DNA of 64,000 bases from Candidatus Doriopsillibacter californiensis (GCA_030386295.1 JANQAO010000004.1:11131-75130), one strand, 5' to 3'. Positions 7,284-63,334 are shown, counted from the first letter of the stretch. Notes: generated from the sequence alone by a model not told the origin. Translations and numbers: made by a program.

Positions 7284-7444
7284 TGAGTAATTTTTCCTTA
7301 TTTTTTGTGCGATATTATTTAGTGCAGTAAATTTTATCATGTAGCAAAAAAGTATGACGTTATAAAGATATCAGCCATGAGGCAAATTGGGCGAGTGGTA
7401 AAATTTGATTTGTTTTTGTTCATATAAATAAGCGAGAAACCACT

Positions 7445-10126
7445 ATGCCTAATCCTTTTGCTTCATGCAAAAAAACAATTGCGCTCTCCGGCGGTAAAGA
7501 AAAAATGTATTATTCCTTGCCGGCACTGCAACAATCCCTTGACGTTAATATTCAACGGTTACCTGTTTGTTTGCGGGTGTTGTTGGAGTCAATACTGCGT
7601 AATTGTGATGGGCGGCGTATTACCGAGGCGCATGTGCGGGCACTGGCTGGCTGGCAAGCGACGGGCGAGCGTGATAACGAGGTACCTTTTGTCGTTAGCC
7701 GTGTGGTGTTGCAAGATTTTACGGGGGTTCCGTTGTTGGCAGACTTAGCCGCCATGCGTGAAGCGGCAGCACAGCAAGACAAGCCCGCTAGTAATATTGA
7801 ACCATTGGTGCCAGTGGAATTGGTGGTAGATCATTCCATTCAGGTTGACCACTACGGCTCATCGGAAGCTATGCGCCTCAACATGGAAATTGAATTTGAG
7901 CGTAACCGGGAGCGTTATGAGTTTCTTAAATGGGGGATGGGTGCCTTTGATACCTTTAAAGTGGTGCCGCCAGGTGTCGGCATCGTGCATCAGGTCAATT
8001 TGGAGCACCTGGCGCGTGGCGTGATGGAAAAAGATGGTTTGTGTTATCCAGACACAGTCGTTGGCACTGACTCTCATACTACGATGATTAACGGCATTGG
8101 TGTTGTTGGCTGGGGAGTGGGCGGCATTGAGGCAGAAGCTGCCATGCTCGGACAGCCGGTGTACATGCTGGAGCCGGATGTAGTGGGAGTGCATTTGCAA
8201 AATAACCTGCCACTAGGAGTGACGGCTACTGATATGGTGTTGACGGTGACGGAAATGTTGCGCCACGCCAATGTGGTGGGTAAGTTTGTGGAGTTTTTTG
8301 GCGATGGTGCGCGCTCTTTGTCGGTGCCTGACCGTGCCACAATTGGCAATATGGCTCCCGAATATGGAGCTACCATGGGATTTTTTGCTACCGATGACAA
8401 AACTGTGGAATATTTACGCGCCACTGGTCGCGACGAAGAGCAATTACAAACGGTTGCCACTTATTATCAAGCGCAAGGCATGTATGGTATTCCTGCTGAC
8501 GGGGAATGCGATTATTCGCAAGTACTCACTTTAGATTTATCTACAGTAGAGCCTTGCGTTGCCGGCCCCAAGCGTCCGCAAGATCGTATTTTGTTGCGCG
8601 ATCTTAAAAAACGATTCGTCAATATGTTTGTTGCGCCGACGGCAGATGGTGGGTACGGCAAGCAAGAAGCGGATTTGACAGCGCGTTATGACACCGGTAA
8701 AGACGGCGTAGATATTGGTGATGGCGATGTGCTGATTGCGGCGATTACTTCCTGTACCAATACGTCCAATCCTAGCGTGTTGTTGGCTGCTGGGCTACTC
8801 GCTAAAAAAGCCGCTCAACGAGGACTCAAGCCCTCTGCGCTCGTTAAAACGTCATTGGCTCCGGGCTCTAGAGTTGTCACCGATTATCTAGAAAAATCTG
8901 GATTGTTGCCATGGCTAGAAAAAATCGGTTTTCATCAAGTTGGCTACGGTTGTACGACCTGTATAGGCAATTCCGGTCCGCTGGATACGGCTTATGAAAA
9001 AACTATAGTTGAGCACAATCTTGTCGGTGCCGCTGTGCTATCCGGTAATCGTAATTTTGAAGCACGTGTACACCAAAACATTCGCGCTAATTTTCTTATG
9101 AGCCCGCCTCTGGTAGTAGCGTTTGCTTTGGCCGGGCGCATTGATATTGACTTGCAAAACGAACCTATCGGCACCGGCAATGACGACAAACTTGTGTATT
9201 TGCGTGATATTTGGCCATCAGGCGAAGAAATTGCCAATGTCATGAGCTATGCTGTGGATCCGGAAAACTTCAAAAGGCGCTACGGTGCAGACTTTTCACA
9301 AGATGTTGAATTGTGGCAACAAATTCCAAGTCACGATGGTGTCCGTTATATGTGGCAGTATAACTCTACCTATATTCAAATGCCGCCGTTTCTGGCGCAA
9401 AGAGGCGTTGTCGGTGGCGTAATTAACGGTGCCCGTTCCCTTGCTATGCTGGGTGATTCGGTCACTACTGATCATATTAGCCCAGCCGGTGCCATTAAGC
9501 CATCATCGCCGGCTGGTGTGTATTTGCGTGAAAACGGTGTTAAGGTAGCTGACTATAATTCTTATGGCTCGCGTCGTGGCAATCACGAAGTGATGATGCG
9601 CGGAACTTTTGCTAATGTGCGCATCCGTAACCTGATGGCTCCAGGCACCGAAGGCGGTGTCACTCTACACCAACCCAGCGGTGAGCAATTATCTATTTAT
9701 GATGCGGCGATGCGCTATCAGAAAACGCAAACGCCACTGCTTATTTTTGCTGGCAAGGAGTACGGTACCGGTTCTTCACGTGATTGGGCGGCAAAGGGTA
9801 CGCGCCTTTTGGGAGTTCGGGCGGTTATTGCGCGCAGCTACGAGCGTATTCACCGTAACAACTTAGTGGGTATGGGGGTGCTGCCGTGCCAATTTATCGG
9901 TGATGATTCTATTCAATCTTTGGGGTTGTGTGGCGATGAGACGTTTGATTTGGTAGGCGTGAGCGGCGACATTAAACCACGCCAAAAAGCTCAGCTAGTG
10001 GTTCATCGCGCTAACGGCAAAATAGATACGGTTGAACTGTTAGTGCGCGTAGATACGCCGACAGAATGCGATTATTATGCCAAAGACGGAATTTTGCCAT
10101 ATGTGATGGAGCAACTAATTGCTTGA
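7445..10126 (+). CDS. acnA: aconitate hydratase A
   Basis: 893 aa, collinear with E. coli AcnA. Matching segments include [49 protein letters not shown] and [12 protein letters not shown]. Confidence 0.9.
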
Positions 10127-11469
10127 AGCGGCTTGCCTTAATATTTTTATAGGAAATGTTTGAATAGTGGGAAGAGATATTCAGAAAAATAAAGCTCGCA
10201 ATATTGTTTTGCATTATGCTTTGGCATTGGTGGTAATTTTTTTGATGGTTTTATATTTGACTTGGTGATTGACGTTTTACAGGAGGGTGGATTTGGCACA
10301 CCGCATTTTTTTATTGAAATACTTGCCTTTGCTGCTGCTTCGTGGGTAATAGTTGTTGGATTATTTGATTAAAGGGTTTCGTTTTTCTGAAATTGCACAG
10401 GCGCGTCGCCTGGTCATGTAGGATTTGGCCAGCCTCATAACCTTGTTTGTTGTAATGTCCAGTGATGCAATTGCCTAAAAAAATATTGGTTACTCTCCAT
10501 CTTGTGGTTAGCGCTTAGCGTTAACCCAAAACTTGAAGCTAGCGCTCAAGAAACCGATGGCGACCATATCGCCTTTTGGCGGAATGACCTAGACGGTAAG
10601 ATAAAAGCTGATGCGTATAGAGGAGAAATTACTGACAGAGATATTGCCGTTGTTATTTTGTGGGGAGCTACGCGCTCAATATCTGCTTTATGATGAGGTA
10701 GGAGTATCTTGATGAGGATAGTTTACGTGTGGATATTGCCGCCCGCCTCGAAATAACCCCCGACCAAGCGCATCTGCCGCATTTTTGGCGGAGGGAAAAG
10801 TGCCCAACCGATTAATTTATTCTAAAATGCAATAGACACATCTAATTTCTACTGTTGCAAATATCCGTCCAACTCCGCTTTTGTGGGGATGTTTTTTTAA
10901 TCGCCTCTCCCCATTGGGGAGAAGGTTAGGATGAGGGGGCAAAGCAAGGTGCGGTTTTAAACCGCCCAAAAATTACCGCAAGAAAAAAAGCAAAAAAGGC
11001 AAGACAATAAGTGCATGAACTTATTAGAGTTGCCTATTGAGAATATCCAACCGCAAGGCGTTAGAGATCCATTAACAATAGAGCGCGTGCAGCGACATAA
11101 GATTTGAACGAATCTTCAGCAATGCCGCCCCATACAAACGCCAAATAGCAAAGCCGCCATGACGAGCATAGTGCCAGTTTTAATGGGTTGAAATGTGGTG
11201 TTCATTATAAATTCCTTTCAATTGTTAAATAAAAACAAATAAAATTTAGGCGGGTTGTCGATTTTAGACAACCGATTGTTGTTATAACTTTGCGTTTTTA
11301 TGGTGACTATCGTATGAGAATGCCTTGTATTATCAAGATGGGCTTTGATTCTTGGGGCTTTTATACGACCAAAAATAAAAATGGGACAAAGAAATAATAA
11401 GGTGTGAAAAGTATTTACAGCCTTTCATGGCATTTTATATCGGCTTAGTTCGTCGCTTGCCGTTGTGTT

Positions 11470-12618
11470 TTAGACGGTGGTTATATTTTTTTGCCCAGAT
11501 AAAAAGCGGGTGATTTGATGGCGCCAAGGTAGTGATGCTGCCGATAATGTACTCGCTATTAATCCTCCCGCCACGCGAAAAGGAAAAAACCGCGCGTGTC
11601 CGCCCATTGCTAATACACTTGTTGCAGCGAGTGTTGCCACATGCGCTACAGAACGGCGCCGCACATAGTTGAGTAGGGCGTCTTCTACACTGCTTTTGCT
11701 ATTTTTGGCAAGCAATGATGACAAACAATCAGCATCGGCAATACCGATATTTAATCCTTGCGCGCCTGCTGGATGCAACATGCTGGCGCCCCCTCCTAAG
11801 CAGGCTATGCGCGCCGCTGCTAAAGGACGCACGTGCCGCGCCTGTGGTGCATAAACAAAACGTTTCGACGGTGAGTGTAGGCGAAAACGCCCGCCAAATT
11901 CGTCATTAATGATTTGCATAAACGCGTTATCATTCAGAACTGTCAGCTGTCCCGCCGCCGCTTCCGAGGCACAAATAATTACTCCCACTGGTTTATTCGC
12001 ATCGGCGCGCGGCACTAGAGCTACGATGCCGTTTTTGCCAAAATTTTCAAAAGCGCAATGTGGCGGCCAGTTGTCTGTCTTAGCAGTCAGTGCAATTACC
12101 GCTTGCTGATAATCAAAAACGCGACTCTGAAATGGTGTAGGTAATCCCGGCCACGCACAAGCAATTACAACCGCTTGTGCTTTTACACTTTTTTCGCCCT
12201 CCGGTGTTTCATAATCTACTCGGACGGCATCGTTTTCCGGAGTTAGTTTTTTAACATTTGCTGACAAGCATAACGAATTGTCTAAAGAAGTCGTCAATGT
12301 CTGCAGCACCGTGTGATGGGAAGCGCCGTACCCCAAAGGCACGTTGCCGTCGCCAATGGTTGCACTGCCCGGAGCGTTACCGAAAGACACGAATATTTGT
12401 CGCAAAGCGGCATTTTTTTCTGGCCACGCGCCTACTTCGGCAAGCACAGCCGCCGATGAGGCATTAAACATTACTGATTTGCCGTCTTCCGTCCCGTTTT
12501 TTGAAGCCCTTTCTAAAACCAATACTTCTGCACCGTGCCGTTGTCTCAAAAGGGCAGCGCATGTGAGACCAGCAATGCCGCCGCCAATGATGCAGATATT
12601 TGTCAACCGTGTATCCAT
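11470..12618 (-). CDS. ubiH: FAD-dependent ubiquinone-biosynthesis hydroxylase (UbiH family)
   Basis: N-terminal [11 protein letters not shown] dinucleotide-binding motif and UbiH/UbiF/Coq6-family architecture. It lies immediately downstream of pepP and overlaps it, which is the conserved pepP-ubiH arrangement. Confidence 0.7.
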
Positions 12619-48284: not shown

Positions 48285-49298
48285 TTAAAGAGCTGCTTTA
48301 ATATTGGTGGCAACTTTAGCAGATACCCACTTGGACCAAATATCTTCATTATTTTTTAGAAAATGTTCGGCTGCTTCTTCGCCTGTTGCTTGATTATCAT
48401 CCATCCATTTCAAAAATTTGTTCATGAAATCATTTTTAAAGCCGCGGTTGGCAAGATAAGCATAAGCTTCTGGGGATTTTCCTTTTAATTCGGTAGTGGT
48501 AACGGTGAATACTTCGGAAAGTGACCACGCGTTTGGTTTGGGGGCAGGGCAATCAAGGATTGTCGTGCATTTGTCCCATTCCTCTTTGTCATGTGATACT
48601 TCAAAATCTACTTTGACCATGTCGAATTTACCAAGAAAAGCTGTTGGTGCCCAGTAGTATCCAAACCAAGGTTCACCGCGCTCATAGGCTTTGGCTAGTG
48701 AGCCGTCCAATCCTGCTGAGGACCCCGGATCTCCGAGAACAAATCCTGCTTCTTCTAGATCAAAAGCATTGTATAAATTACCAGTCGTAATCTGGCAATT
48801 CCAACCAGCGGGGCAACCCATTAATAGACCTTGTGACTTGTCTTCGGGATTGGGGAACAGTTTAGCGTTTCTTTTAATTCCAGAAATGGTGGCCAATTCG
48901 GGATTTTTGTCTACCATATAGCGAGGTACCCAAAAACCTTCTTCACCACCTTCTAGCAACGAACGTCCGGCATATTCCAATCGTCCTTCAGATACTGATT
49001 TGTCCAGCGCTTCTTTGAGGGCGTTTACCCAGAGTTCTGGAGCTACATCAGGCTCACCTTTTTCTGCCATGGAGGTGCCTGTGGGCATTGTGTCGCCGGG
49101 GACCAGTTCCACTTCACAGCCTAATCCGGATTCTAAAATCATTTTATCCATGTGCGCCATAAAAGTTGCGGACGCCCAGTTCATGTCGGCAATTACGATT
49201 TTTCCACAAGCTGCGCTTGCGGGTAACACCGAAAATGTGGCAACCATAAGGATAGTTGCTAAAAAGATTTTATTTATGTAACCAATAAGGAATTTCAT
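48285..49298 (-). CDS. ABC transporter periplasmic substrate-binding protein (glycine betaine/choline ProX/OpuAC family)
   Basis: 337 aa with a signal peptide. Resembles ProX-type binding proteins (GCPAGWNC and aromatic-rich segments). It is first in the operon, so the order is X-W-V. Confidence 0.7.
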   Translation of the reverse strand: MKFLIGYINKIFLATILMVATFSVLPASAACGKIVIADMNWASATFMAHMDKMILESGLGCEVELVPGDTMPTGTSMAEKGEPDVAPELWVNALKEALDKSVSEGRLEYAGRSLLEGGEEGFWVPRYMVDKNPELATISGIKRNAKLFPNPEDKSQGLLMGCPAGWNCQITTGNLYNAFDLEEAGFVLGDPGSSAGLDGSLAKAYERGEPWFGYYWAPTAFLGKFDMVKVDFEVSHDKEEWDKCTTILDCPAPKPNAWSLSEVFTVTTTELKGKSPEAYAYLANRGFKNDFMNKFLKWMDDNQATGEEAAEHFLKNNEDIWSKWVSAKVATNIKAAL

Positions 49299-49733: not shown

Positions 49734-51284
<1,551 letters not shown>

Positions 51285-51632
51285 GAGAATGAATGGTTGG
51301 CGTCATTTTTTACTGTTATACCGATGCGAAAAATATCCGCATCCGCAAGATTGCAAGACGCCGATTTCTTGTGTCCAAGTCGGCGTCCGCGCATACTGGC
51401 TGTGTTGATTGTTAATGAACTTTCTTGCGTTGCGGCAAGATACGGGATTATATACACAAATCAAAGAAAAACAATGTGTTTTTTGGCAATAATTTATTTT
51501 CATGACAATTCTATTTTTTCGTAACCGAAAGTAAAGCGGTTATATTCTGTTTTCGGAGTTTTCTTTGATGATTTTTGTTTTTTTTAGGGGAGGTTACGCA
51601 CAACGTTATATAGTGCGGAGTATAATTTTTTT
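51285..51632 (-). promoter_or_regulatory. 16S leader and promoter region (AT-rich; weak -35 TTGTTT / -10 TATAAT candidate around 51448-51474 on the minus strand)
   Basis: The region is AT-rich. The minus strand reads ...cacaTTGTTTttctttgatttgtgTATAATccc. The spacer is only 14 nt, so the exact promoter is uncertain. Confidence 0.3.
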
Positions 51633-52460
51633 ATGAAAACGGCAGCGCTTATGCGGACAGTTATTGCCGCGCTTCTGCCGGTTGTGGTGGCAGCTATATA
51701 TGAACGCGGAGCTGGTGCATTGTTGCAGGTAGTGCTGGCGATTGGTGGTTGTTTGCTGTTTGAAACACTGTGTCTCGTTTGGCGGCGACAGCCGGTAACA
51801 GCAACCTTAGTGGACGGTACTGCTATTGTGGCAGGAATAATTATAGGTCTTTCATTGCCGCCACTGACGCCTTGGTATGTGTCGATTGCGGCAAGCGCGT
51901 TTGCTATGGTGCTGGCTAAACATTGCTACGGTGGGTTGGGCAATAATCCTTTCAATCCTGCTATGGCTGGTTATGCTTTAGCACTGGTGTCTTTTCCGGC
52001 AGACTTTGATGGCTGGGCAACGGCGTCGGTACTAAATGTTGTTTTTGGTGGTGCTGATGCCATTAGTAGTCCTACTCCGCTTACCGCCAGACAAATGGGT
52101 GTGGCAGTACCTGTAATAACGATTATTTTTCCACTATCGTGCATTATCGGAGGGGCTATTTTATTTCTGAGGCGAGCGGCAGATTGGCGGCTGACATCAG
52201 CTTTTTTACTGGGAGTGGTGCTGGTGGGCGGTGCAGATACGCTATTGGCGGGTGGTACGCTGCTGGCTGCATTTTTTGTGATTACTGACCCAGCTACTGC
52301 TGCTGTTACCGTACGTGGCAAGTGGTTATATGGATTAACGGCAGGTGCATTAGTTGTATGGCTACGCGCCGATGGACAGCATACCGATGGCATTGCTTTT
52401 GCCATTCTTATTTGTAACATGCTGGCACCACTTATGGATAGAATAGTGCGATGGCGCTGA
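51633..52460 (+). CDS. RnfD/NqrB-family membrane protein (shortened, 275 aa)
   Basis: Collinear with E. coli RsxD over VLKLRKQ..TLKDNSALLTG..SIPPLAPWW..AKQLYGGLGQNPFNPAM. The site equivalent to the covalent-FMN threonine is present, ISSPTPLT versus E. coli ISQATPLDT. It is about 75 aa shorter than canonical RnfD. Confidence 0.7.
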   Translation: MKTAALMRTVIAALLPVVVAAIYERGAGALLQVVLAIGGCLLFETLCLVWRRQPVTATLVDGTAIVAGIIIGLSLPPLTPWYVSIAASAFAMVLAKHCYGGLGNNPFNPAMAGYALALVSFPADFDGWATASVLNVVFGGADAISSPTPLTARQMGVAVPVITIIFPLSCIIGGAILFLRRAADWRLTSAFLLGVVLVGGADTLLAGGTLLAAFFVITDPATAAVTVRGKWLYGLTAGALVVWLRADGQHTDGIAFAILICNMLAPLMDRIVRWR

Positions 52461-52972
52461 AACACGCAGGAGCATTGGCAGTGTCGTTAGCGTTAGCATT
52501 AGCCACATTGTCGGGACTTCATGCTTTATGGGAAGATACCATTCATAACAATCGGTTAAATTATGAACAAGAATTAGTGAATGAGGCACTGCAGAACACG
52601 CCGTATGATAATGATATTATTTCGACTAGACAATCCATTCTCGTTGTTTTCCCGACGGCAACTATTAATGTCGTGTGGAAAGCCGTTTATAAAAATCAAT
52701 TGACGGCAGTGGTTGTCAAAGCTGTAGCACAGGGATACGGCGGTGATATTATTTTTATTATTGCTTATAATTTGCGAGGTGAGAGACTTGGTGCTCGTAT
52801 CGTCCAACATCGTGAAACTCCAGGTATTGGTGATTTTTTACATTCACGTGGTGGAGCTTTGCGTGCTATTGACGGTGTTAGTAGTGCGACTATTACTTCA
52901 AACGCTGTGGCTGATGCAGCAGCCGATATTGCAGATTGGGTGCGCGATAATACCGTCATGCTTTTTAACTAA
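52451..52972 (+). CDS. RnfG/NqrC-family FMN-binding protein
   Basis: 173 aa with an N-terminal TM anchor. It has RETPGIGD and DGVSSATITSNAV, which correspond to the TPGLGD and S(G/S)AT covalent-FMN motifs of RnfG. It overlaps the RnfD-like stop (ATGGCGCTGA). Confidence 0.65.
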   Translation: MALKHAGALAVSLALALATLSGLHALWEDTIHNNRLNYEQELVNEALQNTPYDNDIISTRQSILVVFPTATINVVWKAVYKNQLTAVVVKAVAQGYGGDIIFIIAYNLRGERLGARIVQHRETPGIGDFLHSRGGALRAIDGVSSATITSNAVADAAADIADWVRDNTVMLFN

Positions 52973-52984
52973 TCGGATTTTTTC

Positions 52985-54256
52985 ATGGAATTAATTAACT
53001 CTTATTATGAGGCTAGTGTATCCCGACCGCCTTCGGAGCCGATGCTAACGGGTGAAGTGCATGCTGATGTATGCGTTATTGGTGGCGGTTTTACCGGTCT
53101 TTCCTGTGCATTGGAATTAGCGCAGGCTGGTCGGAAAGTTATATTGTTAGAGGCCGAACGGGTAGGGTGGGGCGCATCGGGGCGTAATGGCGGACAATGT
53201 ATTTGTGGTTATTCCACCGACGCGCTTGCCGGTCCAGCTCGGCAAGCTGGTGTGACGGAGAAATATCTTTTTGATTTGACGCGTGAGGCAATTTCCTTGT
53301 TGCACGCTCGTAGGCAACAATATTCTATTGACTGTGACTGGCGTAGTGGCTATTTGCTGGCAGCTATTCACGCCCGCCATTGCCGAGAGTTAGAAGAGCA
53401 CGCCAACACATTGACTAATCGTTATCACTATCCGTTGCGCTTGCTGGATTTGCCGGAAACACGTGCCGCTATTGCCAGCCGCCGTTATTGTGGTGCGATG
53501 GTGGATGAACAAAGCGGCCACTTGCATCCGCTCAAATATGTGTTGGGTCTTTCCAATGCGGCTCTTGCCTCCGGTGTGCGCCTGCACGAACAATCGCCAG
53601 CTTTATCGGTCGTTGATATGGGTAACAATATTGAAGTCAAAACAGCTGCAGGTATGGTGTGCTGCAGGCAAGTAGTTTTTGCTGGCAATGCTTATTTGGA
53701 AATCGCCCCTCGTTTGCGCACGCGTGTTATGCCGGCGAGTACGTGTATTGGTGCAACAGCACCATTAGGAGCGGCAGCAGCAGAAAATTTGATTGCCAAT
53801 CAACGTGCCGTATGTGATATGAATTTTGTCATTGACTATTTTCGCTGTAGTGCAGATACTCGTCTGCTATTCGGCGGACGGGTAGATTATGCTAATCGTA
53901 CTCCTTCCGATTTGGCAGGCTGCATTCGCCAGCGTATGGAAAAGGTGTTTCCACAATTAATTGGAGAAAAATTGGATTACGTGTGGGGAGGAGCTGTTGC
54001 CATTACCATTAATCGTTTTCCCGATATCGGGCGACAAGGCAACAATGTTTATTATGCGCAAGGTTTTTCAGGGCATGGTGTGGCATTGTCGGGGTTTGCT
54101 GGGAAAATTCTAGCTGACGCTATTGTGGGGGATACGGAAAAGTTGGACGTGTTCAGCCGCATTCGTCACCGGCCCTTTCCCGGAGGCAACACATTTCGCA
54201 CGCCATTGCTAGTTTTGGCTATGCTGTACTATCAGTTGCGCGATTTGTTTGGATGA
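52985..54256 (+). CDS. FAD-dependent oxidoreductase (DAO family; PuuB / glycine-oxidase-like)
   Basis: 423 aa. The N-terminus has the VCVIGGGFTGLSCALELAQAGRKVILLEAERVGWGASGRNGG dinucleotide-binding fold typical of D-amino-acid-oxidase-family enzymes. Confidence 0.7.
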   Translation: MELINSYYEASVSRPPSEPMLTGEVHADVCVIGGGFTGLSCALELAQAGRKVILLEAERVGWGASGRNGGQCICGYSTDALAGPARQAGVTEKYLFDLTREAISLLHARRQQYSIDCDWRSGYLLAAIHARHCRELEEHANTLTNRYHYPLRLLDLPETRAAIASRRYCGAMVDEQSGHLHPLKYVLGLSNAALASGVRLHEQSPALSVVDMGNNIEVKTAAGMVCCRQVVFAGNAYLEIAPRLRTRVMPASTCIGATAPLGAAAAENLIANQRAVCDMNFVIDYFRCSADTRLLFGGRVDYANRTPSDLAGCIRQRMEKVFPQLIGEKLDYVWGGAVAITINRFPDIGRQGNNVYYAQGFSGHGVALSGFAGKILADAIVGDTEKLDVFSRIRHRPFPGGNTFRTPLLVLAMLYYQLRDLFG

Positions 54257-55314
54257 ACGGTATGCTTATTGTCGGTGGTGGGCCAGTGGGCATGACACTA
54301 GCGTTGGCGCGTCCTCAAACTGCAATGTTATTGTCCTTGCCGGCACAAAAATCTAGCAGAGTTTATGCTTTGGGAGGTAAAGCATCCGCTTTTTTGCAAC
54401 GGATAGGCGCACTTCCTATAGGCAATCCAGTTCGGCGCTTTTTGCTAACAGCAGATAATGAACAAATAAATATTCATGCTTCTGCAGTTGGTGTAGATGT
54501 GCTGTGCCATATTGTAAGAGAATCGGCGTTGTTGGAATGCCTGCAAGCGCGGATATTAGATGAAAAGGTGAACTGTCGCACGCTGTCTAAGGATTCTCGT
54601 ATTATTGATTATCAAGTTTCTTTAGAAACTGGACGATTATTCTTGAGTGATGGCGGGCATTATGAGACGGAACTGCTTATTGCCGCCGACGGTGCTCGCT
54701 CGGCAGTAGCTACTGCTGCATCAGTCGGTGCGGCGGTACACTCTTTTGAGCAGCGCGCGTTGACCATGGTATTACGTGCGCCTTTGGATGATGATTGTGC
54801 AGCGCAATGGTTTTCTCAGCGTAATGTGCTAGCGTTATTACCACTGGGTGGTGGCTTGTTTTCACTGGTATGGTCATTGTCAGAACTTCAAGTACACACG
54901 CTGCTGGCCAAAGGCAGCAAAGCGGTAGTGGCAGCGGCGGCGGCACACATTAATATGCCTTTGGAAGCGGTAGATGCGACAATGTTTTCTTTCCCGTTGT
55001 TTTCGATGCGTCGTGCTGTGCGTGTGACTCAACGGTTGGCATTTGTCGGCAATGCCGCGCGTGTTATTCACCCATTGGCGGGGCAAGGATTAAATTTGGG
55101 ATTGTTGGATGCCGAATTGTTATGGCAATGCTTAGATAAAAATAAAAATGTTGCCGAAGCGTTGGCGGTGTACGCTGAAGGTAATTGGCAAGGAGGATGG
55201 TGGAATCTGCTCACCGCATCTTTTAATGAATCAAGATGGTTGCCAGCGGTAGCTTTGAAAATGGGTAAACAAAAATTTTTGAGACAGTTGGCCGTAGCGA
55301 TTTCAAATAGTTAA
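54253..55314 (+). CDS. FAD-dependent monooxygenase of the UbiH/UbiF/UbiI (Coq6) family
   Basis: 353 aa. It starts LIVGGGPVGMTLAL. It has the AADGARSAV and GNAARVIHPLAGQGLNLGLLDA signature segments of UbiH-family hydroxylases. It overlaps the preceding gene by 4 nt. Confidence 0.65.
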   Translation: MNGMLIVGGGPVGMTLALARPQTAMLLSLPAQKSSRVYALGGKASAFLQRIGALPIGNPVRRFLLTADNEQINIHASAVGVDVLCHIVRESALLECLQARILDEKVNCRTLSKDSRIIDYQVSLETGRLFLSDGGHYETELLIAADGARSAVATAASVGAAVHSFEQRALTMVLRAPLDDDCAAQWFSQRNVLALLPLGGGLFSLVWSLSELQVHTLLAKGSKAVVAAAAAHINMPLEAVDATMFSFPLFSMRRAVRVTQRLAFVGNAARVIHPLAGQGLNLGLLDAELLWQCLDKNKNVAEALAVYAEGNWQGGWWNLLTASFNESRWLPAVALKMGKQKFLRQLAVAISNS

Positions 55315-55326
55315 TGCCGCGGTAAT

Positions 55327-58300
55327 TTATTGACTACCTTCTTGCTTGGCAATATTAAGGTGTCGTTGCGCTTTTTCAGGTTCTTCCACTGAGATATATA
55401 TGCCAGACAGCATTTTGTGAACTGATACGTTGCGTGGCTCAATTTCCAACGCTTGATTGAGTATACTGACTGCTTCAATAGCGCGGTTACGCTGCACTTC
55501 AATAGCAGCAATTCTTAAATAACTCTCAATTTGTTCAGGGTACTTTTCTATGATTTTCAGGTAAGCGTCAATGGATGCATCCATATTGGACAGCCGATGC
55601 TGAGAGAAAGCCAAGAGCCTCAAATAATTTAGGTCTTCTGGCGCTTTGGCGGGAAGTAACAATTCTAACTGTTCTACAACGCCCCTATAGTCTTTAATGC
55701 TAAATAATGCTCTTGCATAATTGTGGCGTACGATGTTTTCGCTGGACAAATTTAATTTTCCGATTTCTAGTGCTTTTGCATAGTCTTCCGCTGCGCGTAC
55801 ATAATTTTCGATGGCCATATAAAACCCAGCGCGGTTTTGGTAGGTACGTGCCGGATTTTTGGTACGAATGGTTTCGTGAGAAAGCAACTGTGTATACAAA
55901 TCAATGGCTTTATTAAAATCTCTTTCTTCCACCGCTTGGTCAATGCTTTTTATAAATTCACTCTCATCAGTGTAGTTTACAAAAATAGCCTCTGCACTCT
56001 GATTTTTCTTTGATAATTTTTCTGCGGTGTCGCGAGGCAGACGTTGTTCAAGAACCGCAATGCGAGCTTCTATGCGCTCGGCATTGTTCGCGTCATTGCT
56101 TTGCTTATAGACATTTAATAGTGCCCGTAATATAGAAGTTGAGGCATTCTGTTTTTTACGCATATTTTTCAAGTGGTTAATGGCATGTTTGCTGTCGCCA
56201 ACTGCAGCTAACGCTAAACAGGCATCAACTTGCGCAATAACGTGGTGGTGCTTTTCTGCTTCTTGTAAGATAACTCGTATTTCTTCAGCGTTAATATTAT
56301 CGGCGGCGGATGCTGATTTGAGGCGTGCGTCAAGCGCACGTAGTGCAATATCATCAACGACACTGCCCGTTTTGGCCGCTTCTGCAATAAAAGGATAAAA
56401 ATATGAGGTTCTTTCTATAAAATTGTAATCAAGATAAATGTGTGCGAAATCATTGGCGATTTCGGCTTTACGCTGTGCGGTGGGAGCTTTTTCTATAGCT
56501 AATTTTGCTTGTTCCATCCCTGAGGTAGAGGAGGGAGTATTTCGAACATCAAGAAGAGCTTTGGCATGCAACCCTATTGATTCATCCTTAAGCTGAAAAG
56601 AAGATACTTGAAGTAATTTATATGTTTTTTGGCGACTACCATTTTTTGCATATGTTAGTAACAGGCGGTTCAAAATAGCCTCATCAAAGGGAAACTTGCG
56701 ATACCCTTGTTCTAAGGTGTCTATCATAAGGAGTTGTTGTTGACGAAGCTCATACAAGTCAGCAAGAGTATCTACCACACGAGGTTCCTCTGGTAACAAT
56801 ATTTGCAATCTCCGCGTTAGTGTAGCGGCTTCAGCGTAATTTCCAGAAAGTTTTTCCAATACGATAGCGGCGTTAAGTAGCAATGACGATTCGGGATTGT
56901 TACTAAGTTCATCAAGCAACTCAACGCGTGTTGTTTCTGGTTGCCGTTGTGCGCTAATATCAAGTAAGAAAGATAGCGCTAACAGTTCGTTATTGAGGAG
57001 GTTGCGTTTTTGTGCTTGTTTTATTAATTCGGCGGCTTTTTTTTCATTACCGGCATACATAAGTAAAAAGACATAATTATTTAATGCGACAGTATTAGTT
57101 GGATCAGTGTCTGTCGCTTTTTGATACATTGCCAGGATATCATCATTTGGTAAATTTCCCTCCTGTCGCGACCACGCAGCCCCCGCAGCATAGGCGAAAG
57201 AATACGTGCTGGGCGTACGCTGGTTAATTTCTTCATAGTGTTTTTGAGCGGATTGAGTATCTCCATCTGCCATGTCCAAATAGGCAATAATGTACTGCGA
57301 CAGTAAAGATTGCGATGCGACAGTTGATTCAACAATAATTTTACGGGCTTGTTTGTGATTTTTATCAATAACGTAAGATAACGCTTGCAAGGCGACAATG
57401 TCGGAGGCCGGCGTGCTATTTTCTTGTTGAGCCAATGCTTCTACGTTTAGCGGTATACCGTAATAATTGTTAAACCCTTCTGTGTTGACGGCAAAACCAA
57501 GATTTTTGTCTATTGGCATTGGTTTTTTTAATTTGTCAAATGGCAACGGGAATTTTTCGCCGATTTTGACGTCTGTATTTTGCAAATAAAAATAATAGGA
57601 ATGGAGTAATAGATCGTTTAATGTTTGCGTTTCTTCTACTGATAGTTCTGTGTTGGATAATGTGTCAACGGTTTTTTCTAGATAATCGCGTGCGATGACA
57701 GGGTTGTTTTCTAAAAGGGCAAAAATTCCGAGCAATGCATATACGGGTGGATAAGAGCTATATTTGCTTTTTTCCAATAGTGACATGGCTTTTTGAGGTG
57801 CGTTACCATAGTTTGCTGCAGCGTTGATATAACTGGCTTTTGGTAATTCGGAAAATTTTTGAGATAACGGTCTCAGTGTTTTTTCTGCCTGCATTATGTT
57901 TCCAGACATTAGTTGCGCGCGTGCCAGCAGAATAATTTCTTCTTCGGATGGATTGGCAAATTCTGCGTATTGGGTCAGCGATTCGAGTGCTACTGAGTAA
58001 TTTTTTTCTACTAGAGCAGCCTTTCCTTCTTTTAGAAAATTATTGGCACGTAGGTTAAACCAAGTGTAGCCCCCGGAAACTAAAACTAATACGACAGCAA
58101 TAGCAATGATGATATTTTTGTTTTGGATAAAAACAAGAGTCTTTTGATGAAGGGAGAAAAAATCAGAAGGCGGCGGGAAATCCTCTGGCACCTCTGGTGT
58201 ATTTTTCTGCTCATACCTTGGTGCTATTGGCTCAAGTGTGGTGGGTATTGATGACGAAGGGGTAGCAGTAGTTTCTGAGGAAACTAAGCTATTTTCCTGT

Positions 58301-58335
58301 TTCTCAAGCTTCTTTGTTTTAAGATAGATAGACAT
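55327..58335 (-). CDS. 1002-aa single-pass membrane-anchored tetratricopeptide-repeat (TPR) protein, paralog B
   Basis: A K/S/T/P-rich N-terminal segment of about 70 aa, one TM helix (IIIAIAVVLVLVSGGYTWF), and about 900 aa of TPR-like repeats running to the C-terminus. There is no catalytic or beta-barrel domain. Confidence 0.7.
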   Translation of the reverse strand: MSIYLKTKKLEKQENSLVSSETTATPSSSIPTTLEPIAPRYEQKNTPEVPEDFPPPSDFFSLHQKTLVFIQNKNIIIAIAVVLVLVSGGYTWFNLRANNFLKEGKAALVEKNYSVALESLTQYAEFANPSEEEIILLARAQLMSGNIMQAEKTLRPLSQKFSELPKASYINAAANYGNAPQKAMSLLEKSKYSSYPPVYALLGIFALLENNPVIARDYLEKTVDTLSNTELSVEETQTLNDLLLHSYYFYLQNTDVKIGEKFPLPFDKLKKPMPIDKNLGFAVNTEGFNNYYGIPLNVEALAQQENSTPASDIVALQALSYVIDKNHKQARKIIVESTVASQSLLSQYIIAYLDMADGDTQSAQKHYEEINQRTPSTYSFAYAAGAAWSRQEGNLPNDDILAMYQKATDTDPTNTVALNNYVFLLMYAGNEKKAAELIKQAQKRNLLNNELLALSFLLDISAQRQPETTRVELLDELSNNPESSLLLNAAIVLEKLSGNYAEAATLTRRLQILLPEEPRVVDTLADLYELRQQQLLMIDTLEQGYRKFPFDEAILNRLLLTYAKNGSRQKTYKLLQVSSFQLKDESIGLHAKALLDVRNTPSSTSGMEQAKLAIEKAPTAQRKAEIANDFAHIYLDYNFIERTSYFYPFIAEAAKTGSVVDDIALRALDARLKSASAADNINAEEIRVILQEAEKHHHVIAQVDACLALAAVGDSKHAINHLKNMRKKQNASTSILRALLNVYKQSNDANNAERIEARIAVLEQRLPRDTAEKLSKKNQSAEAIFVNYTDESEFIKSIDQAVEERDFNKAIDLYTQLLSHETIRTKNPARTYQNRAGFYMAIENYVRAAEDYAKALEIGKLNLSSENIVRHNYARALFSIKDYRGVVEQLELLLPAKAPEDLNYLRLLAFSQHRLSNMDASIDAYLKIIEKYPEQIESYLRIAAIEVQRNRAIEAVSILNQALEIEPRNVSVHKMLSGIYISVEEPEKAQRHLNIAKQEGSQ

Positions 58336-58337
58336 TT

Positions 58338-61229
58338 TTAACTCCCGTCAATTAGTTGGGCCAACACTGCATTATTTTCCTTTGCAGCTAACATATCAAA
58401 GGCGGTTTGTTTTTTGTATAATGCTTTGTAAATGGGTGCGTACAGCGGCGTAGCGCGCGCAGCCTGGCGCAATACCGCAATGCTACTTGAGGTATCTTTT
58501 GCTCTGGAATGAGCGTCAGCAAGTGAAATATAAGAGGGGATGTCAAGAGGAAAAAATGCGATGGTTTCCTGCAAGTAAGTAATAGCCGCATCAATATCTT
58601 CGTTGCTGACTAAGGCATCACCGGCTAAGCGGCGGTATAGTGGTGTTTTAGGGAATGTTTCCGCTAATTGCTGATAGATAGCAAACGCCTGTTCGTATTT
58701 ATTTAGAAACATAAAATTCTTAGCTAGATAAAAAAGCGCATCATTTTCATTTTCCACTTTTAGGGCAAGGGCTTGTTTAATATCAGCGACGCTGTCGGCA
58801 TATTTCCGTAGCGCCAGAAAAAAAGTGCCGCGCTGAAAATGCAATAATGCCTTTTGTTCATTTGTTTTCGTTGCGGCCAATAGTTGCTGGAACCCGGCTA
58901 TTACTGTGCTGGAGTTACTATCGTTTTGTAGTGCGGCAGCAATGGATTGAGACAATTTCGCATCAGGTGGGGACAGTACACGATAAGATTCAACGGACAT
59001 TTTTTCACCCTTAAGTGCATGACGGATGTTATCAATAGCGGCGGTGGTTTTTGCGGCTAATTCATGCAAATTTTGCGAGTCCTGAAGTGTGGCAACGATT
59101 TCTAGTAAATTAACATCCGCTGGTTTCCAAACGGTGGCGGCTTGTAACATGGACAAAGCTTCAGCAGGATTACCCAAAGCTACCATGGCCAAGCCAGCGT
59201 GATATTGTGTGTCATACAGCAGCGATTCGGATGCTGCTTTTTTGGCTAGCAAGTATGCGGCTGCAGGATCATTTTCTGTTTGTAGCTGTGCTAGCATGGC
59301 GCGCCCGGCGGGCGGCAACGAATCAGCGGCAGATAGTAATTCACGCAATAGAGTCGTATTTGTGTCAAATAGCACCGGAGCTGCGCGCATCGCTGCTTCA
59401 GCTTGATTTGATGAATTTTCAGTAGCAGTAATGCCTTGTTCAAATGCCGCTAATGCCCCAATTTTGTTCTTTTCTTGATGGAGGATAAGTGCTTCTAGAA
59501 CGCTGGATTGTAGTAAGTAACTTTCTTGCTCTGACAGTGTGTTGAGATGTTCTTTAGCGCCATTAATATCGCCAACTGCCAGCGCTACCAAACCTAGTTG
59601 ATAGTCAACTCGCCCGTCTTTATGTGTGCGTTTTTGAGCTTCTTGTAATACATTGCGCGCGCGCATGTAAAGTCCAGTATCATATAGCAAATCAACATAG
59701 TGCAACAGCGAGTCAAAATTGTTTGCGAGGTCTTGCTCTGTTGGTTGTAACAAGTATATAGCGGTGTCGTAATCGCCATTGGCAATACTATGAGCGGCAA
59801 GCGCGTTACGTTTGCTGAGGTCGTGTTCGGGCACTGCCTGCGCCAGAGAAGAAATGTCTTCTTGGCCATTTTTTATTTCTAACAGTAGTTTTAGCAAATG
59901 TGTTTGGTCTGCAGTAATGTTGGCAATTGTTTTCACATCCGCTAGAGCGCGACCCCAATTGCCAAGCATCATGTGTAATGCGGCGCGATTACTACGGGCG
60001 ATGGCGTTGTCATGCTCTAGATTAATCGCTTGGTCTAACAGCGCTAGTGCGCTTATTGCGCCCGCAATCGTGGGTTGTGAGCTAAAAATGCTGTTGGCGG
60101 CATTGATAAATCCCGTTGCTGATTTGGGAAACGTCTTCGTTAAAGATTGAAATGCTATCGCTGCTTCCTCAGTTTTTCCTATCAACGCTAAGCGCAATCC
60201 GACCAAACTGGCCGCAGCGGGAGAATTTTTTAATGTGCTTTCTGAAAACTGCGATATTTCTACCTGTGCTTCATTAAAATCTTCTTCTTCAAGAAGTAGT
60301 CGCGTGTAGTGTACGGCAATAATATTGCTGGGCGTTAATTTTTCGGTAACATTACTATCTCGCAACGACTCGTAAGCATTAATATAAAAATCAGCACCTA
60401 TGGCGACCCCAAAAGCATTTTTCAATCGCCAGCGCAACACGGTATCTATATCGGGCGAAGGGGTGCCGTAATCACGCTTAAATTTGAGATTAGCCTCAAC
60501 ACGCTTATGTACAGCATAAATGGCAGCAACGTCAGTGTCAGGATCGCTACGCAAGACATCGTCAGCCTGTAAGAAATCTTCACGAGCTTGTCGAACTTCA
60601 CCTTGTTCAGCTAGCATAATCCCACGCAATAACCGCCCGCCAGCATGTCCCGGATTCATTACAATCAGTGTATTTAGCGCTTCCAGTGCTTTGTTAGAAG
60701 GTGCTACGAGCAATGCGTAATTAAAGAGAAAGTCCGGATTGGTTGAGTAATCCTGAGTTTGAGTAATTTTCTCCATTGCCGAAACGGCATAGCCATGGTT
60801 GCCAGTTTTTATAGCAGCCCGCGCTGCGTAAAATAAAGCTTCGGTGTCGTCCGAGTTATCGGCAAGATACTTTTGAAATTGCCCAAGCGCGGTAGCGTAA
60901 TCTCCTTTGTCAAAAGTGCTGAAGGCGTCGCTGCGTTGAATAAGCGATTGAATATTAGGTAATATAATGACCGCCAATAGCAATATAACACCGCTGGCAA
61001 TGGTAATTGTTTTGTTTTTGCTTATTTTGTTTAGTGAAGGGAGCGACGTCGCTATTGTTTTTATTTTGCTTTTTTGTATTTTGTCTTTAATAGATTGAAC
61101 AAAATTCTCAATTAGCGCAATAAAATCAACGCGAGCTTTAACTTCCGGAATATCTGGTTGAACTGTACGCGCCAAATGACTCAAATCTGCGCGTTTGTCT
61201 TTGTCAGATGATACTTTTTCTTCAACCAT
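58338..61229 (-). CDS. 963-aa single-pass membrane-anchored TPR protein, paralog A
   Basis: A charged N-terminal segment of about 75 aa, one TM helix (ITIASGVILLLAVIILP), then TPR repeats throughout. Its stop is 2 nt from the start of paralog B, so the two are translationally coupled. Confidence 0.7.
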   Translation of the reverse strand: MVEEKVSSDKDKRADLSHLARTVQPDIPEVKARVDFIALIENFVQSIKDKIQKSKIKTIATSLPSLNKISKNKTITIASGVILLLAVIILPNIQSLIQRSDAFSTFDKGDYATALGQFQKYLADNSDDTEALFYAARAAIKTGNHGYAVSAMEKITQTQDYSTNPDFLFNYALLVAPSNKALEALNTLIVMNPGHAGGRLLRGIMLAEQGEVRQAREDFLQADDVLRSDPDTDVAAIYAVHKRVEANLKFKRDYGTPSPDIDTVLRWRLKNAFGVAIGADFYINAYESLRDSNVTEKLTPSNIIAVHYTRLLLEEEDFNEAQVEISQFSESTLKNSPAAASLVGLRLALIGKTEEAAIAFQSLTKTFPKSATGFINAANSIFSSQPTIAGAISALALLDQAINLEHDNAIARSNRAALHMMLGNWGRALADVKTIANITADQTHLLKLLLEIKNGQEDISSLAQAVPEHDLSKRNALAAHSIANGDYDTAIYLLQPTEQDLANNFDSLLHYVDLLYDTGLYMRARNVLQEAQKRTHKDGRVDYQLGLVALAVGDINGAKEHLNTLSEQESYLLQSSVLEALILHQEKNKIGALAAFEQGITATENSSNQAEAAMRAAPVLFDTNTTLLRELLSAADSLPPAGRAMLAQLQTENDPAAAYLLAKKAASESLLYDTQYHAGLAMVALGNPAEALSMLQAATVWKPADVNLLEIVATLQDSQNLHELAAKTTAAIDNIRHALKGEKMSVESYRVLSPPDAKLSQSIAAALQNDSNSSTVIAGFQQLLAATKTNEQKALLHFQRGTFFLALRKYADSVADIKQALALKVENENDALFYLAKNFMFLNKYEQAFAIYQQLAETFPKTPLYRRLAGDALVSNEDIDAAITYLQETIAFFPLDIPSYISLADAHSRAKDTSSSIAVLRQAARATPLYAPIYKALYKKQTAFDMLAAKENNAVLAQLIDGS

Positions 61230-61338
61230 ATGCTATTTCTCTTATCACATAATAGGAAGTCGTTTTTATGACATCTCGCCGTAAATGCCAAAAAAATTAC
61301 TTATAGTTCCCTTAAACTTTGATATTATACTACTAGAA

Positions 61339-62655
61339 TTAATCACACACTTTGATTGATGCACTAGGGGCGTTCTTTTTGCATGTTTTGGTTAAATTTA
61401 CAACAATTAGTTCAGCTAGTAATTCCAGCCAGTGCATTGTCGGTAAGCCGCCGCTAGTCAAAAAAAGCTGACAGCCGATATTGGCCGTAACCGTACGTTG
61501 ACCATCGCAGGCGGTCAAGTTGCGTATTTTATCTGCGCGCAGCCGCTTTGCTCGGCTTGGCTGTAGTAAAGAGTAAGTGCCGGCAGAGCCGCAGCACTGG
61601 GTTTTATTTGTCGGTAGCGTAATGTCGTAGCCTGCGGCGCTTAATAATGCTTCCACGCGTCCGCCCAAATCTAGGGCATTTTGCATGGTGCATGGTGAAT
61701 GATAAGCGATTTTTTTATTTGTTGGTGGGTATAGTTTTGTTTGCAATACGGGCCATTCTTGTTCCAGTAGTTCAATAATATTGAGTGTTTTTTTAGTTAC
61801 CAGTGCTGCTTCAGGAGTATTGAGTTGATGTGCGTATTCTCGTACCATAACATCGCAGCCGCTGGCGGTCATGATTACCGCTTCTGCTTCTCCTGAACGC
61901 AACAGTGTTGCCCAAGCTGCTACGTTGCGGCGCATGTCCGCTTGTGCTGCTTCTTGCTGATTTAGATGAAATCGCAAGGCACCACAGCAACCAGTATTTG
62001 GTGGATTGATTACGCCAATACCGATGGCGCCAAGCACGTCCACTAGCGCGGCGTGAGTTTGCGCAGACAAGGCACTTTCGGCACAGCCGGCGAGCATGAT
62101 GACGTTGCGTGAATGTCGCACTGGGTGTGGCAGGCGGCGGCGTTCAAAGTGGGCGCGCCAGCTAGTGGGCAACGCAAATCGTCCCATTGTTGCTATTGCA
62201 GCCATCATGTTTAGCAGGCGAGGATTGCTCAAAACGGTACCGACTAACCGTCGTAGCCATACGGATGCTTGAGTTCGTGCGGGTTCGGCAGCGTGACGGC
62301 CAATGTCGAGTAATTCACCATAACGCACACCGGATGGGCAGGCGGTTTCGCACGCACGGCAAGTTAGGCAACGGTCTAAATGTTTTAGTGTTATTGCCGA
62401 CGGTGCCCCTTGTGCTAGCATTTCGTTGATGAGGTAAATTCGTCCGCGTGGGCTGTCGCGCTCATCGCCGTCTAGAGCATATGTGGGGCAAACCGCACAG
62501 CACATGCCGCAGTGTACGCAGCTGCGAATAATATCGCGTGCTTGTCCGGCGGCTTTCTCATCAATAAAATCGGGTGAAATATTACTTTGCACGTTTTTTG
62601 CTGAATGGGTGCTAGCGCATGGCGGTTGAGGTGTTCCGCACGTGCTTACATCCAA
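61339..62655 (-). CDS. glycolate-oxidase-type iron-sulfur subunit (GlcF-like; 2x 4Fe-4S plus 2x CCG domains)
   Basis: Collinear with E. coli GlcF, including [43 protein letters not shown] and C-terminal CCG motifs. No glcD or glcE sits next to it. Confidence 0.75.
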
Positions 62656-63272
62656 TAGCTGCTACGCGTCATCAACCGACCAAACAAGTGCATTGCTCCT
62701 TTAACTGGAGGTGGAAGGTCAACGCCACCCATTGATATCGCGTTGCTGGCATGTTGCTGTTCGTCAACATCCATTTGTTCTACAATACGGCGGCTTTTTT
62801 CGTCATTTGCCGGCAATTTTTGCAAATGACTTTGCAAATGTGCTGATACTTGCTGTTCAGTTTCGGCCACAAACCCCAACGATACTTTATCCGACACTAG
62901 AGCGGCGGCGGCGCCAATGGCAAAAGAACCACCGTACCACAGTGGATTGAGGAAGCTTTGCCGCCCGCCTAATTCATGAATACGTTGTGCTGTCCACGCC
63001 AAGTGATCAATTTCTTCGTCGGCGGCTTCTTGTAGCGCATTCGTTATTTTCTGATCACGAGAAAATAACGCCTGTCCTTGATATAACGCCTGTGCGCAAA
63101 CTTCACCACAATGATTGACGCGCATTAATGCCGCTGCGTGGCGTCGCTCGGCATCACTCATATCTGTTTCCGATGCTTCATCCGCTGGCGTTGGGCGCTT
63201 CGCGGTAATTGGTGTAAAAATTGTTTTTAGGCCGTTGCCCACAATGTCAAATAAGCGATTTTTTAATGTCAT
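62646..63272 (-). CDS. coq7: ubiquinone biosynthesis di-iron hydroxylase Coq7 (bacterial CLK-1 homolog)
   Basis: It has the [27 protein letters not shown] and DEQQH carboxylate-bridged di-iron ligand motifs. Collinear with Pseudomonas Coq7. The start was set at [11 protein letters not shown]. Its 3' end overlaps the glcF-like start by 10 nt. Confidence 0.75.
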
Positions 63273-63334
63273 GCGTTTGTCACCATTGAAAGTTTGCAAT
63301 TAAGATAAAGAATCCTATCATGAATTTCCCGTCG

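Follow-up and report, generated by a model that had tools for sequence, protein, structure and literature searches.

Rnf and Nqr complexes are six-subunit ion pumps, in which electrons pass from flavin mononucleotide (FMN) on RnfG or NqrC to FMN on RnfD or NqrB, then to a riboflavin about 8 Å away, and from there to the iron-sulfur clusters of RnfC or to ubiquinone. The only two-subunit derivative described, the "NQR/RNF-like" systems, combines an NqrB/RnfD-like protein with a flavinylated NqrC/RnfG-like protein and has been proposed to act as a one-way transmembrane electron carrier; its D-like subunit possesses an NAD-binding domain of its own, the fused C-terminal PF00175 domain that defines the system, and does not conserve the flavinylation threonine (PMC8238504, PMC10979944). 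Beyond these systems, no description of a D/G-only module of the kind reported here was found in the literature. This module is encoded by the first two genes of a four-gene locus (positions 51633-55314) in a window of 64,000 nucleotides (nt; GCA_030386295.1, JANQAO010000004.1:11131-75130) from Candidatus Doriopsillibacter californiensis (= Candidatus Persebacteraceae bacterium Df01), a Tethybacterales symbiont of the nudibranch Doriopsilla fulva; "the window" denotes this whole stretch. The two genes encode an RnfD-like and an RnfG-like protein (the D-G pair) and are followed by genes for a DAO-family oxidoreductase and a UbiH-family hydroxylase. Our preferred reading, to which we give an even chance, is that the D-G pair is a stand-alone, RnfC-independent transmembrane flavin wire, placed head to tail with a separate DAO/hydroxylase module. 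The evolutionary and structural part of this reading is well supported; gene content, clade, motifs, arm loss, and module independence are direct observations.

All four genes lie on the + strand. The first (51633-52460) encodes a short RnfD-like membrane protein of 275 amino acids (aa) and the second (52451-52972) a short RnfG-like protein of 173 aa. A reading of this DNA made from the sequence alone (the sequence-only reading) had named the RnfD and FMN-binding profiles for these two, and both were found, PF03116 with an E of 3.9e-68 and PF04205 (FMN_bind) with an E of 2.1e-12. The third gene (52985-54256) encodes a 423-aa flavin adenine dinucleotide (FAD)-dependent oxidoreductase of the DAO family (PF01266, E 2.8e-69), apparently of the PuuB/PauB, or gamma-glutamyl-amine oxidoreductase, type, and the fourth (54253-55314) a 353-aa FAD monooxygenase assigned to the UbiH/UbiI/UbiF family (TIGR01988, E 1.6e-52). 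Public databases name the products "RnfABCDGE type subunit D" (NCBI), "FMN-binding protein," "FAD-binding oxidoreductase," and "FAD-dependent monooxygenase." Neither these annotations nor the literature found assign a specific function to the four-gene block. The description of the gene packing in the sequence-only reading was exact in coordinates and junctions, with a 10-nt overlap between the RnfD-like and RnfG-like genes, a 12-nt gap before the DAO gene, and a 4-nt overlap (ATGA) between the DAO and hydroxylase genes. The single operon that it proposed agrees with this tight spacing and with the recurrence of the block in other lineages, and co-transcription of the four genes is likely here.

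The RnfD-like protein passes the rnfD equivalog TIGR01946 narrowly (213.7 bits versus a cut-off of 207.05), matches RnfD chains of the PDB with an E of 1e-32, and is spanned by PF03116 from residue 2 to 273, with no further domain. A homology search returned about 58 proteins with 42-66% identity, whose length ranges over 199-313 aa and mostly falls within 262-310 aa; the next matches are canonical RnfD proteins of about 335-350 aa, at 33-40% identity. In a joint alignment and tree of 27 short RnfD-like and 78 canonical RnfD sequences (from the genome scan, among the matches listed), the short sequences are monophyletic, with 42-90% identity among themselves and 27-45% to canonical RnfD. This clade is rare: a library of 1.84 billion representatives at 50% identity contains 5135 RnfD/NqrB-type proteins, of which no more than two full-length ones score above 200 bits; in genome and metagenome scans, the only further short-clade loci among the matches listed were L010, L011, and L099. 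Its hosts appear to be uncultured Gammaproteobacteria; most of the contigs read with the short pair have 0.9-3.3 Mb and, judging by their series of ENA accessions, may stem from metagenome assemblies of sponges. The sequence-only reading had put the RnfD homolog at about 75 aa shorter than canonical RnfD, which stands against proteobacterial RnfD (median 344 aa) but not against the solved Gram-positive chains, which have 310-318 aa.

An AF2 model of the RnfD-like protein (pLDDT 84) predicts a largely helical, RnfD-like fold, with a TM of 0.85 to chain 9eri_D of Acetobacterium woodii RnfD and of 0.82-0.85 across solved RnfD chains. Two differences in length from canonical RnfD run through the short clade. 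The periplasmic five-helix linker has 56 residues versus 88, a loss of about 32, and the stretch before helix 1 has a median of 6 residues versus 20; the RnfD-like protein begins at the equivalent of residues 19-21 of solved RnfD chains. Both arms of RnfD, N- and C-terminal, bind RnfC in two structures solved by cryo-electron microscopy, in which the N-terminal arm inserts into RnfC and anchors it (PMC9588780, PMC11889175). By its length and its alignment to solved chains, the RnfD-like protein does not have this N-terminal RnfC-docking arm, and no SSPH-type motif is present in the short-clade N-termini displayed. As the arm that clamps RnfC has been shed, the D-G pair most likely works without RnfA, RnfB, RnfC, and RnfE.

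The flavin-binding positions, in turn, are kept. Forty-three alignment columns are invariant across the short clade, including Asn108 and Asp219, which align to N123 and D249 of A. woodii RnfD (9eri_D), the essential riboflavin ligands of that protein (PMC11889175). The FMN-bearing threonine (Thr148, in the motif region DAISSPT148PL at 52056-52082, +) is present in 27/27 short-clade sequences. It is preceded by proline in 26 of the 27, versus alanine in 77 of the 78 canonical RnfD proteins among the matches listed, and a serine or threonine at position -3 is found in only 19 of the 27. The ApbE motif is D-x-x-[S/T]-G-A-[S/T], and even an alanine-to-valine change halves flavinylation; the review that gives these data has no mention of proline being tolerated by ApbE (PMC12052999). 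Covalent FMN on the RnfD-like protein is thus plausible as judged from the motif, and uncertain because the proline before Thr148 departs from the ApbE pattern. Four further short RnfD representatives (P0318, P0350, P0396, and P0412) apparently also have no N-terminal arm; before the threonine, P0318 and P0350 have proline and P0396 has Pro-Ser, while P0412 keeps SGAT.

The RnfG-like protein begins with a hydrophobic stretch, a putative membrane anchor, ahead of the FMN_bind domain. It matches RnfG in the PDB (E 9e-10); of the profiles, only Pfam FMN_bind is passed, the score for the rnfG equivalog TIGR01947 being 67.1 bits, under the cut-off of 102. The alignment shows that about 22 aa inserted in proteobacterial RnfG are missing. 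Short-clade RnfG-like proteins share a GYGG motif and DG[VI]x[GS]AT. The flavinylation motif in the window, DGVSSAT147 (52871-52891, +), has serine at the consensus glycine position of the ApbE motif and fits the relaxed pattern D-x-x-[S/T]-[G/S]-A-[T/S]; its threonine is present in 11 of 11 aligned sequences, and the pattern in its strict form in 9 of them. The sequence-only reading had stated that both proteins keep their covalent-FMN motifs. The threonines bear this out on alignment, in every sequence of the short clade and of the RnfG-like set, whereas the RnfD motif, with proline for alanine, is non-canonical. The C-terminal tail of the RnfG-like protein varies. In L009, L091, L092, and L093, it ends in a cysteine and has a second one about 10-20 residues before the end; tail cysteines are absent in four of the seven lineages with the four-gene block, including the window, one is found in L011 and L094, and L099 lies outside the alignment. 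This cysteine pair might form a redox-active disulfide or bind a metal.

These motifs also bear on whether the pair is a relic, that is, what is left of a lost Rnf complex, either devoid of a redox role or in a non-redox, transporter-like one. These symbiont genomes are reduced, the ApbE motif of the RnfD-like protein is degraded (proline at -1, the incomplete Ser/Thr at -3), and the RnfD fold is akin to that of Amt and urea transporters. The open reading frames (ORFs), however, are intact in every lineage sampled, the flavin ligands and both threonines are invariant, and the tight, mostly overlapping arrangement of the two genes has been kept across lineages, which makes a relic highly improbable.

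The D-G pair is locally orphan and its arrangement non-canonical, as the sequence-only reading had claimed. In the 64-kb window, tblastn with RsxA, RsxB, RsxC, and RsxE of a canonical operon (L036) gave no match to rnfA, rnfB, rnfC, or rnfE, and no rnf or nqr gene was found among the other window ORFs scanned by Pfam/NCBIfam annotation. The tblastn search also yielded no RsxA/E (NqrE/D-type) homolog in the window; NqrA and NqrF were not queried with their own sequences. A complete rnfABCDGE or nqr operon to which the two genes might belong as mere D and G members was not found in the window. The same four Rsx queries gave no match within 8-10 kb of the D-G pair in any of 12 short-clade lineages, for which 13-21 kb of context around each match was read, while 63 of the 78 canonical RnfD loci among the matches listed encode all five other subunits. 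The Tethybacterales and Doriopsillibacter papers checked make no mention of Rnf.

The two proteins might still be ordinary subunits of a full Rnf complex, with rnfA, rnfB, rnfC, and rnfE at other sites of the genome. Precedents for split operons exist: rnfA-rnfB-rnfD-rnfG occurs without C or E within 8 kb in four Thiotrichaceae-type loci (L012, L015, L018, and L039, at about 6870-9600), and rnfD-rnfG stands alone on a Candidatus Albibeggiatoa contig (L032, 7956-9626). The NCBI name of the first product and its narrow pass of TIGR01946 point the same way. Yet the RnfD proteins of these split operons keep an SSPH-type arm and canonical size, whereas the RnfC-docking arm is missing throughout the short clade; the short clade is divergent and monophyletic, its RnfG-like partner falls under the rnfG cut-off with the insertion of about 22 aa deleted, and another rnf gene within 8-10 kb was found in 0 of the 12 lineages. 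We therefore regard a split operon as unlikely.

The genomic contexts of the short clade bear on how the D-G pair relates to the two flavoenzymes. In all 12 lineages read, the RnfD-like and RnfG-like genes are adjacent, with called genes overlapping by 1-17 nt or, in L090, separated by 1 nt. A neighborhood comparison for the four-gene order found the same block in the window and in six other lineages (L007/8, L010, L011, L094, L095, and L099), and its upstream neighbors, where read, vary (16S rRNA, a cation-efflux gene, pta, and dmsC), as do the downstream ones. In the other five lineages, the pair has no adjoining flavoenzymes and its neighbors are unrelated: it follows recA in L009, pepP-ubiH in L091, and a MOSC gene in L092, precedes an aminotransferase gene in L090, and lies beside a convergent dmsABC-type cluster in L093. 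In two of these, the DAO and hydroxylase genes are found apart from it, again with a 4-nt overlap, on the same contig about 74 kb away in L009 (as L096) and in the same sample in L091 (as L098). Since the DAO-hydroxylase pair is placed elsewhere in two lineages whose D-G pair stands without it, the four-gene block represents two modules joined. The D-G pair and the DAO-hydroxylase pair are independent two-gene modules, juxtaposed here, and the link between them is facultative.

This finding does not sustain the model of the sequence-only reading, in which the D-G pair serves the two adjacent FAD enzymes as a dedicated FMN relay that feeds or drains them. Several observations agree with such a relay. 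The four genes are tightly packed in the window, the block recurs despite varying upstream neighbors, and the RnfG-like and DAO genes overlap in L008, L011, L094, and L095, four of the six further lineages with the block, by 4 nt in three and by 13 nt in one. Furthermore, the D-G pair and the DAO gene occur on one contig in L009 and in one sample in L091, DAO homologs occur on contigs equal in size to the D-G contigs of L092 and L093, and a different UbiH paralog lies directly upstream of the D-G pair in L091. Co-occurrence within one clade, however, may reflect mere shared ancestry, five lineages have the D-G pair without adjoining flavoenzymes, and the DAO-hydroxylase pair remains a unit with its 4-nt overlap on its own. 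In addition, enzymes of both families ordinarily function without a membrane relay: class A monooxygenases use NAD(P)H, and PuuB/DadA-type enzymes use O2 or quinone. We give a dedicated relay a low probability; functional coupling of the D-G pair to the flavoenzymes is unproven. Likewise, the proposed connection of the D-G pair to ubiquinone-ring hydroxylation or its electron supply is unsupported, and the pair gives no supported new electron route to ubiquinone biosynthesis.

For the DAO protein, a role in amine catabolism is suggested by its relatives. Hundreds of these share 50-54% identity with it, many of them named gamma-glutamylputrescine oxidase by JGI, and it is 52% identical over its full length to the product of a Pseudoxanthomonas suwonensis gene (L097) in a puu/pau-like polyamine-catabolism cluster. 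There, the neighbors are two glutamine-synthetase-like genes, a Peptidase_C26 gene, a class-III aminotransferase gene, and binding-protein genes, and no Rnf-like gene was found nearby, which speaks against a general need of this enzyme for a relay. The DAO protein is probably a PuuB/PauB-type amine oxidoreductase. That the fourth protein is a UbiH-family hydroxylase, as the sequence-only reading had proposed, is borne out for the family by its top matches, all of them Ubi hydroxylases, but its score for TIGR01988 (UbiH/UbiF/VisC/COQ6), 178.6 bits, is under the cut-off of 224.65. Its best solved relative is Escherichia coli VisC/UbiI (4k22, E 8.6e-19). Neither flavoenzyme attains a curated equivalog cut-off. 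The ubiH, ubiE, and coq7 genes that had been noted in the window are all present, and the 353-aa hydroxylase is a paralog distinct from the pepP-linked ubiH at 11470-12618. The latter also misses the Ubi-hydroxylase cut-off (148 bits), so that fast evolution is likely behind the low score of the 353-aa protein; as an ordinary enzyme of ubiquinone synthesis, this protein could plausibly complete, together with the pepP-linked UbiH and Coq7, the set of three ring hydroxylases that the pathway requires, its sequence being no guide to regioselectivity. No DAO-hydroxylase pair with this 4-nt overlap was found outside this symbiont clade, and to our knowledge such a pair has not previously been described.

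In the preferred reading, the RnfD-like and RnfG-like proteins would derive from proteobacterial RnfD and RnfG and would now stand alone as a pair in symbionts of the Tethybacterales type that live in sponges and nudibranchs. Concerning cofactor occupancy, direction of electron flow, and partners, we infer the following arrangement. One FMN would sit on the periplasmic RnfG-like domain and another at Thr148 of the RnfD-like protein, near the periplasmic face, while Asn108 and Asp219 would bind riboflavin close to the cytoplasmic face. Working without RnfA, RnfB, RnfC, and RnfE, the pair would move single electrons across the inner membrane, between a donor or acceptor on the cytoplasmic side or in the membrane, such as ubiquinone or a soluble flavoenzyme, and some periplasmic partner. 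The second module, a PuuB-type amine oxidoreductase and a UbiH/UbiI/UbiF-family hydroxylase, is a separate conserved pair. With the three-flavin segment kept and the RnfC anchor lost, an RnfC-independent wire is the most economical reading.

A periplasmic setting for flavinylation is consistent with an ApbE lipoprotein gene (LGGC signal) in L009 (15024-16052), which shares the strand of the D-G pair and lies 4 kb downstream; no other short-clade locus was seen to have an apbE nearby. Several findings weigh against the wire. There is no apbE in the 64-kb window; the proline before Thr148 makes covalent FMN on the RnfD-like protein uncertain; no gene for a periplasmic or cytoplasmic partner was found to recur near the D-G pair in the 12 lineages; the RnfD-like protein does not have the N-terminal helices that form the ubiquinone site of NqrB; the Thiotrichaceae and Beggiatoa-type genomes have D-G-only or A-B-D-G loci that resemble split canonical operons; and the overlaps of the RnfG-like and DAO genes in four block lineages are compatible with real coupling.

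The missing helices also bear on a quinone-coupled wire, in which the riboflavin of the RnfD-like protein would exchange electrons with ubiquinone as in NqrB, so that the pair would act as a quinol:periplasmic-acceptor oxidoreductase or in reverse, possibly serving periplasmic reductases. The NQR path from FMN on NqrC through FMN on NqrB and riboflavin to ubiquinone is established, and the organism makes ubiquinone, as the ubiH, ubiE, and coq7 genes in the window indicate. Moreover, genes for a DmsABC-type molybdopterin oxidoreductase lie near the D-G pair in L093 (12972-17490, -, beside the pair) and in L094 (1800-9984), where dmsC ends 17 nt before the RnfD-like gene. This association, however, is limited to 2 of the 12 lineages, and the quinone pocket of NqrB is formed by two extra N-terminal helices that are absent from RnfD, the short form being shorter still. 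We consider quinone coupling in this form quite unlikely.

Upstream of the RnfD-like gene and on the opposite strand lies a complete 16S rRNA gene (49739-51284, -), which is unlinked, with no tRNA or 23S rRNA gene adjoining and a proX-like binding-protein gene (48285-49298) as its next neighbor. The 348-bp intergenic region between these divergent genes (51285-51632) is the presumed site of the operon promoter. A simple sigma-70 scan gave no + strand match in it, and a promoter and terminator scan of the four-gene operon gave sites no commoner than in shuffled sequence. A 164-aa antisense ORF (51971-52465, -) was judged spurious, as it lies wholly within the coding region of the RnfD-like and RnfG-like genes. 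Downstream of the four genes follow two convergent genes for TPR proteins of about 1000 aa (region 55327-63299, -), then glcF and coq7 (62646-63299), which overlaps glcF by 10 nt; the remaining ORFs scanned are ordinary housekeeping genes, including pepP-ubiH and ubiE. Two such TPR genes are also convergent to the DAO-hydroxylase pair in L007/8, L010, L095, L096, and L099, and a glcF-type gene follows them in L095 as in the window. This TPR-TPR neighborhood goes with the DAO-hydroxylase pair even where the D-G pair is elsewhere (L096).

Further observations concern the Ubi hydroxylases and D-G neighbors. At the conserved "GD" FAD motif, the 353-aa hydroxylase has GNAAR and the pepP-linked UbiH GGGAS. 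Between acnA and ubiH, the ORFs in 1.3 kb of the window (10127-11469) have at most 67 aa, and Rfam gave no match there; this stretch corresponds in place to ubiI, which follows ubiH in the E. coli pepP-ubiH-ubiI operon, and tblastn found no remnant of a UbiH-family gene in it. The UbiH beside the D-G pair in L091 is an ortholog of the pepP-linked UbiH and not of the 353-aa paralog, and was set aside as weak support for a UbiH link. Proteins of 309, 175, and 116 aa encoded near the D-G pair in L009 and L093 have no Pfam match, and one of 440 aa has only weak helix-turn-helix matches.

If the preferred reading holds, the flavin core of Rnf would be reusable as a bare membrane-spanning electron conduit, and ApbE would have an additional class of target with an unusual Ser-Pro-Thr site. 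More tentatively, and in our view rather doubtfully, the D-G pair may be a self-sufficient two-protein wire of riboflavin, FMN, and FMN with no fused or dedicated cytoplasmic input domain, perhaps exchanging electrons directly with ubiquinone or with a soluble flavoenzyme such as the PuuB-type dehydrogenase or the Ubi-family hydroxylase; this would constitute a new minimal class of extracytosolic electron transfer, confined to animal-associated Tethybacterales-type bacteria. The host group, symbionts of sponges and nudibranchs, is uncultured, and very little is known about its respiratory physiology.

Among known systems, canonical Rnf (RnfABCDGE) shares with the module a homologous D protein with an Rnf-like predicted fold, the FMN threonine, and the riboflavin ligands, and a G protein with a putative membrane anchor, an FMN_bind domain, and an ApbE-type motif. 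It differs from the short pair in that the latter has no A, B, C, or E gene at its locus in 12 lineages; the short D has no N-terminal arm, a linker of 56 versus 88 residues, and proline for alanine before the threonine, and the short G has no insertion of about 22 aa and falls under the rnfG cut-off. Na+-NQR has the same flavin chain from FMN on NqrC through FMN on NqrB to riboflavin, and the predicted fold of the RnfD-like protein resembles that of NqrB with a TM of 0.68-0.80. The RnfD-like protein, however, scores 109 bits against a cut-off of 414 for the NqrB equivalog (NF003756) and does not have the N-terminal amphipathic helices of the ubiquinone site. In the second module, the DAO protein resembles JGI-named gamma-glutamylputrescine oxidases and the 353-aa protein UbiH/UbiI/UbiF, both falling under the respective cut-offs. 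The closest described systems are the NQR/RNF-like ones, with which the D-G pair shares the two-subunit composition and a D-like membrane protein encoded next to a G/NqrC-like gene; in contrast to these, the RnfD-like protein has 275 aa, contains only PF03116 without PF00175, and has an invariant threonine. In the D-G pair, an order of uncultured symbionts has conserved a minimal form derived from the Rnf core.

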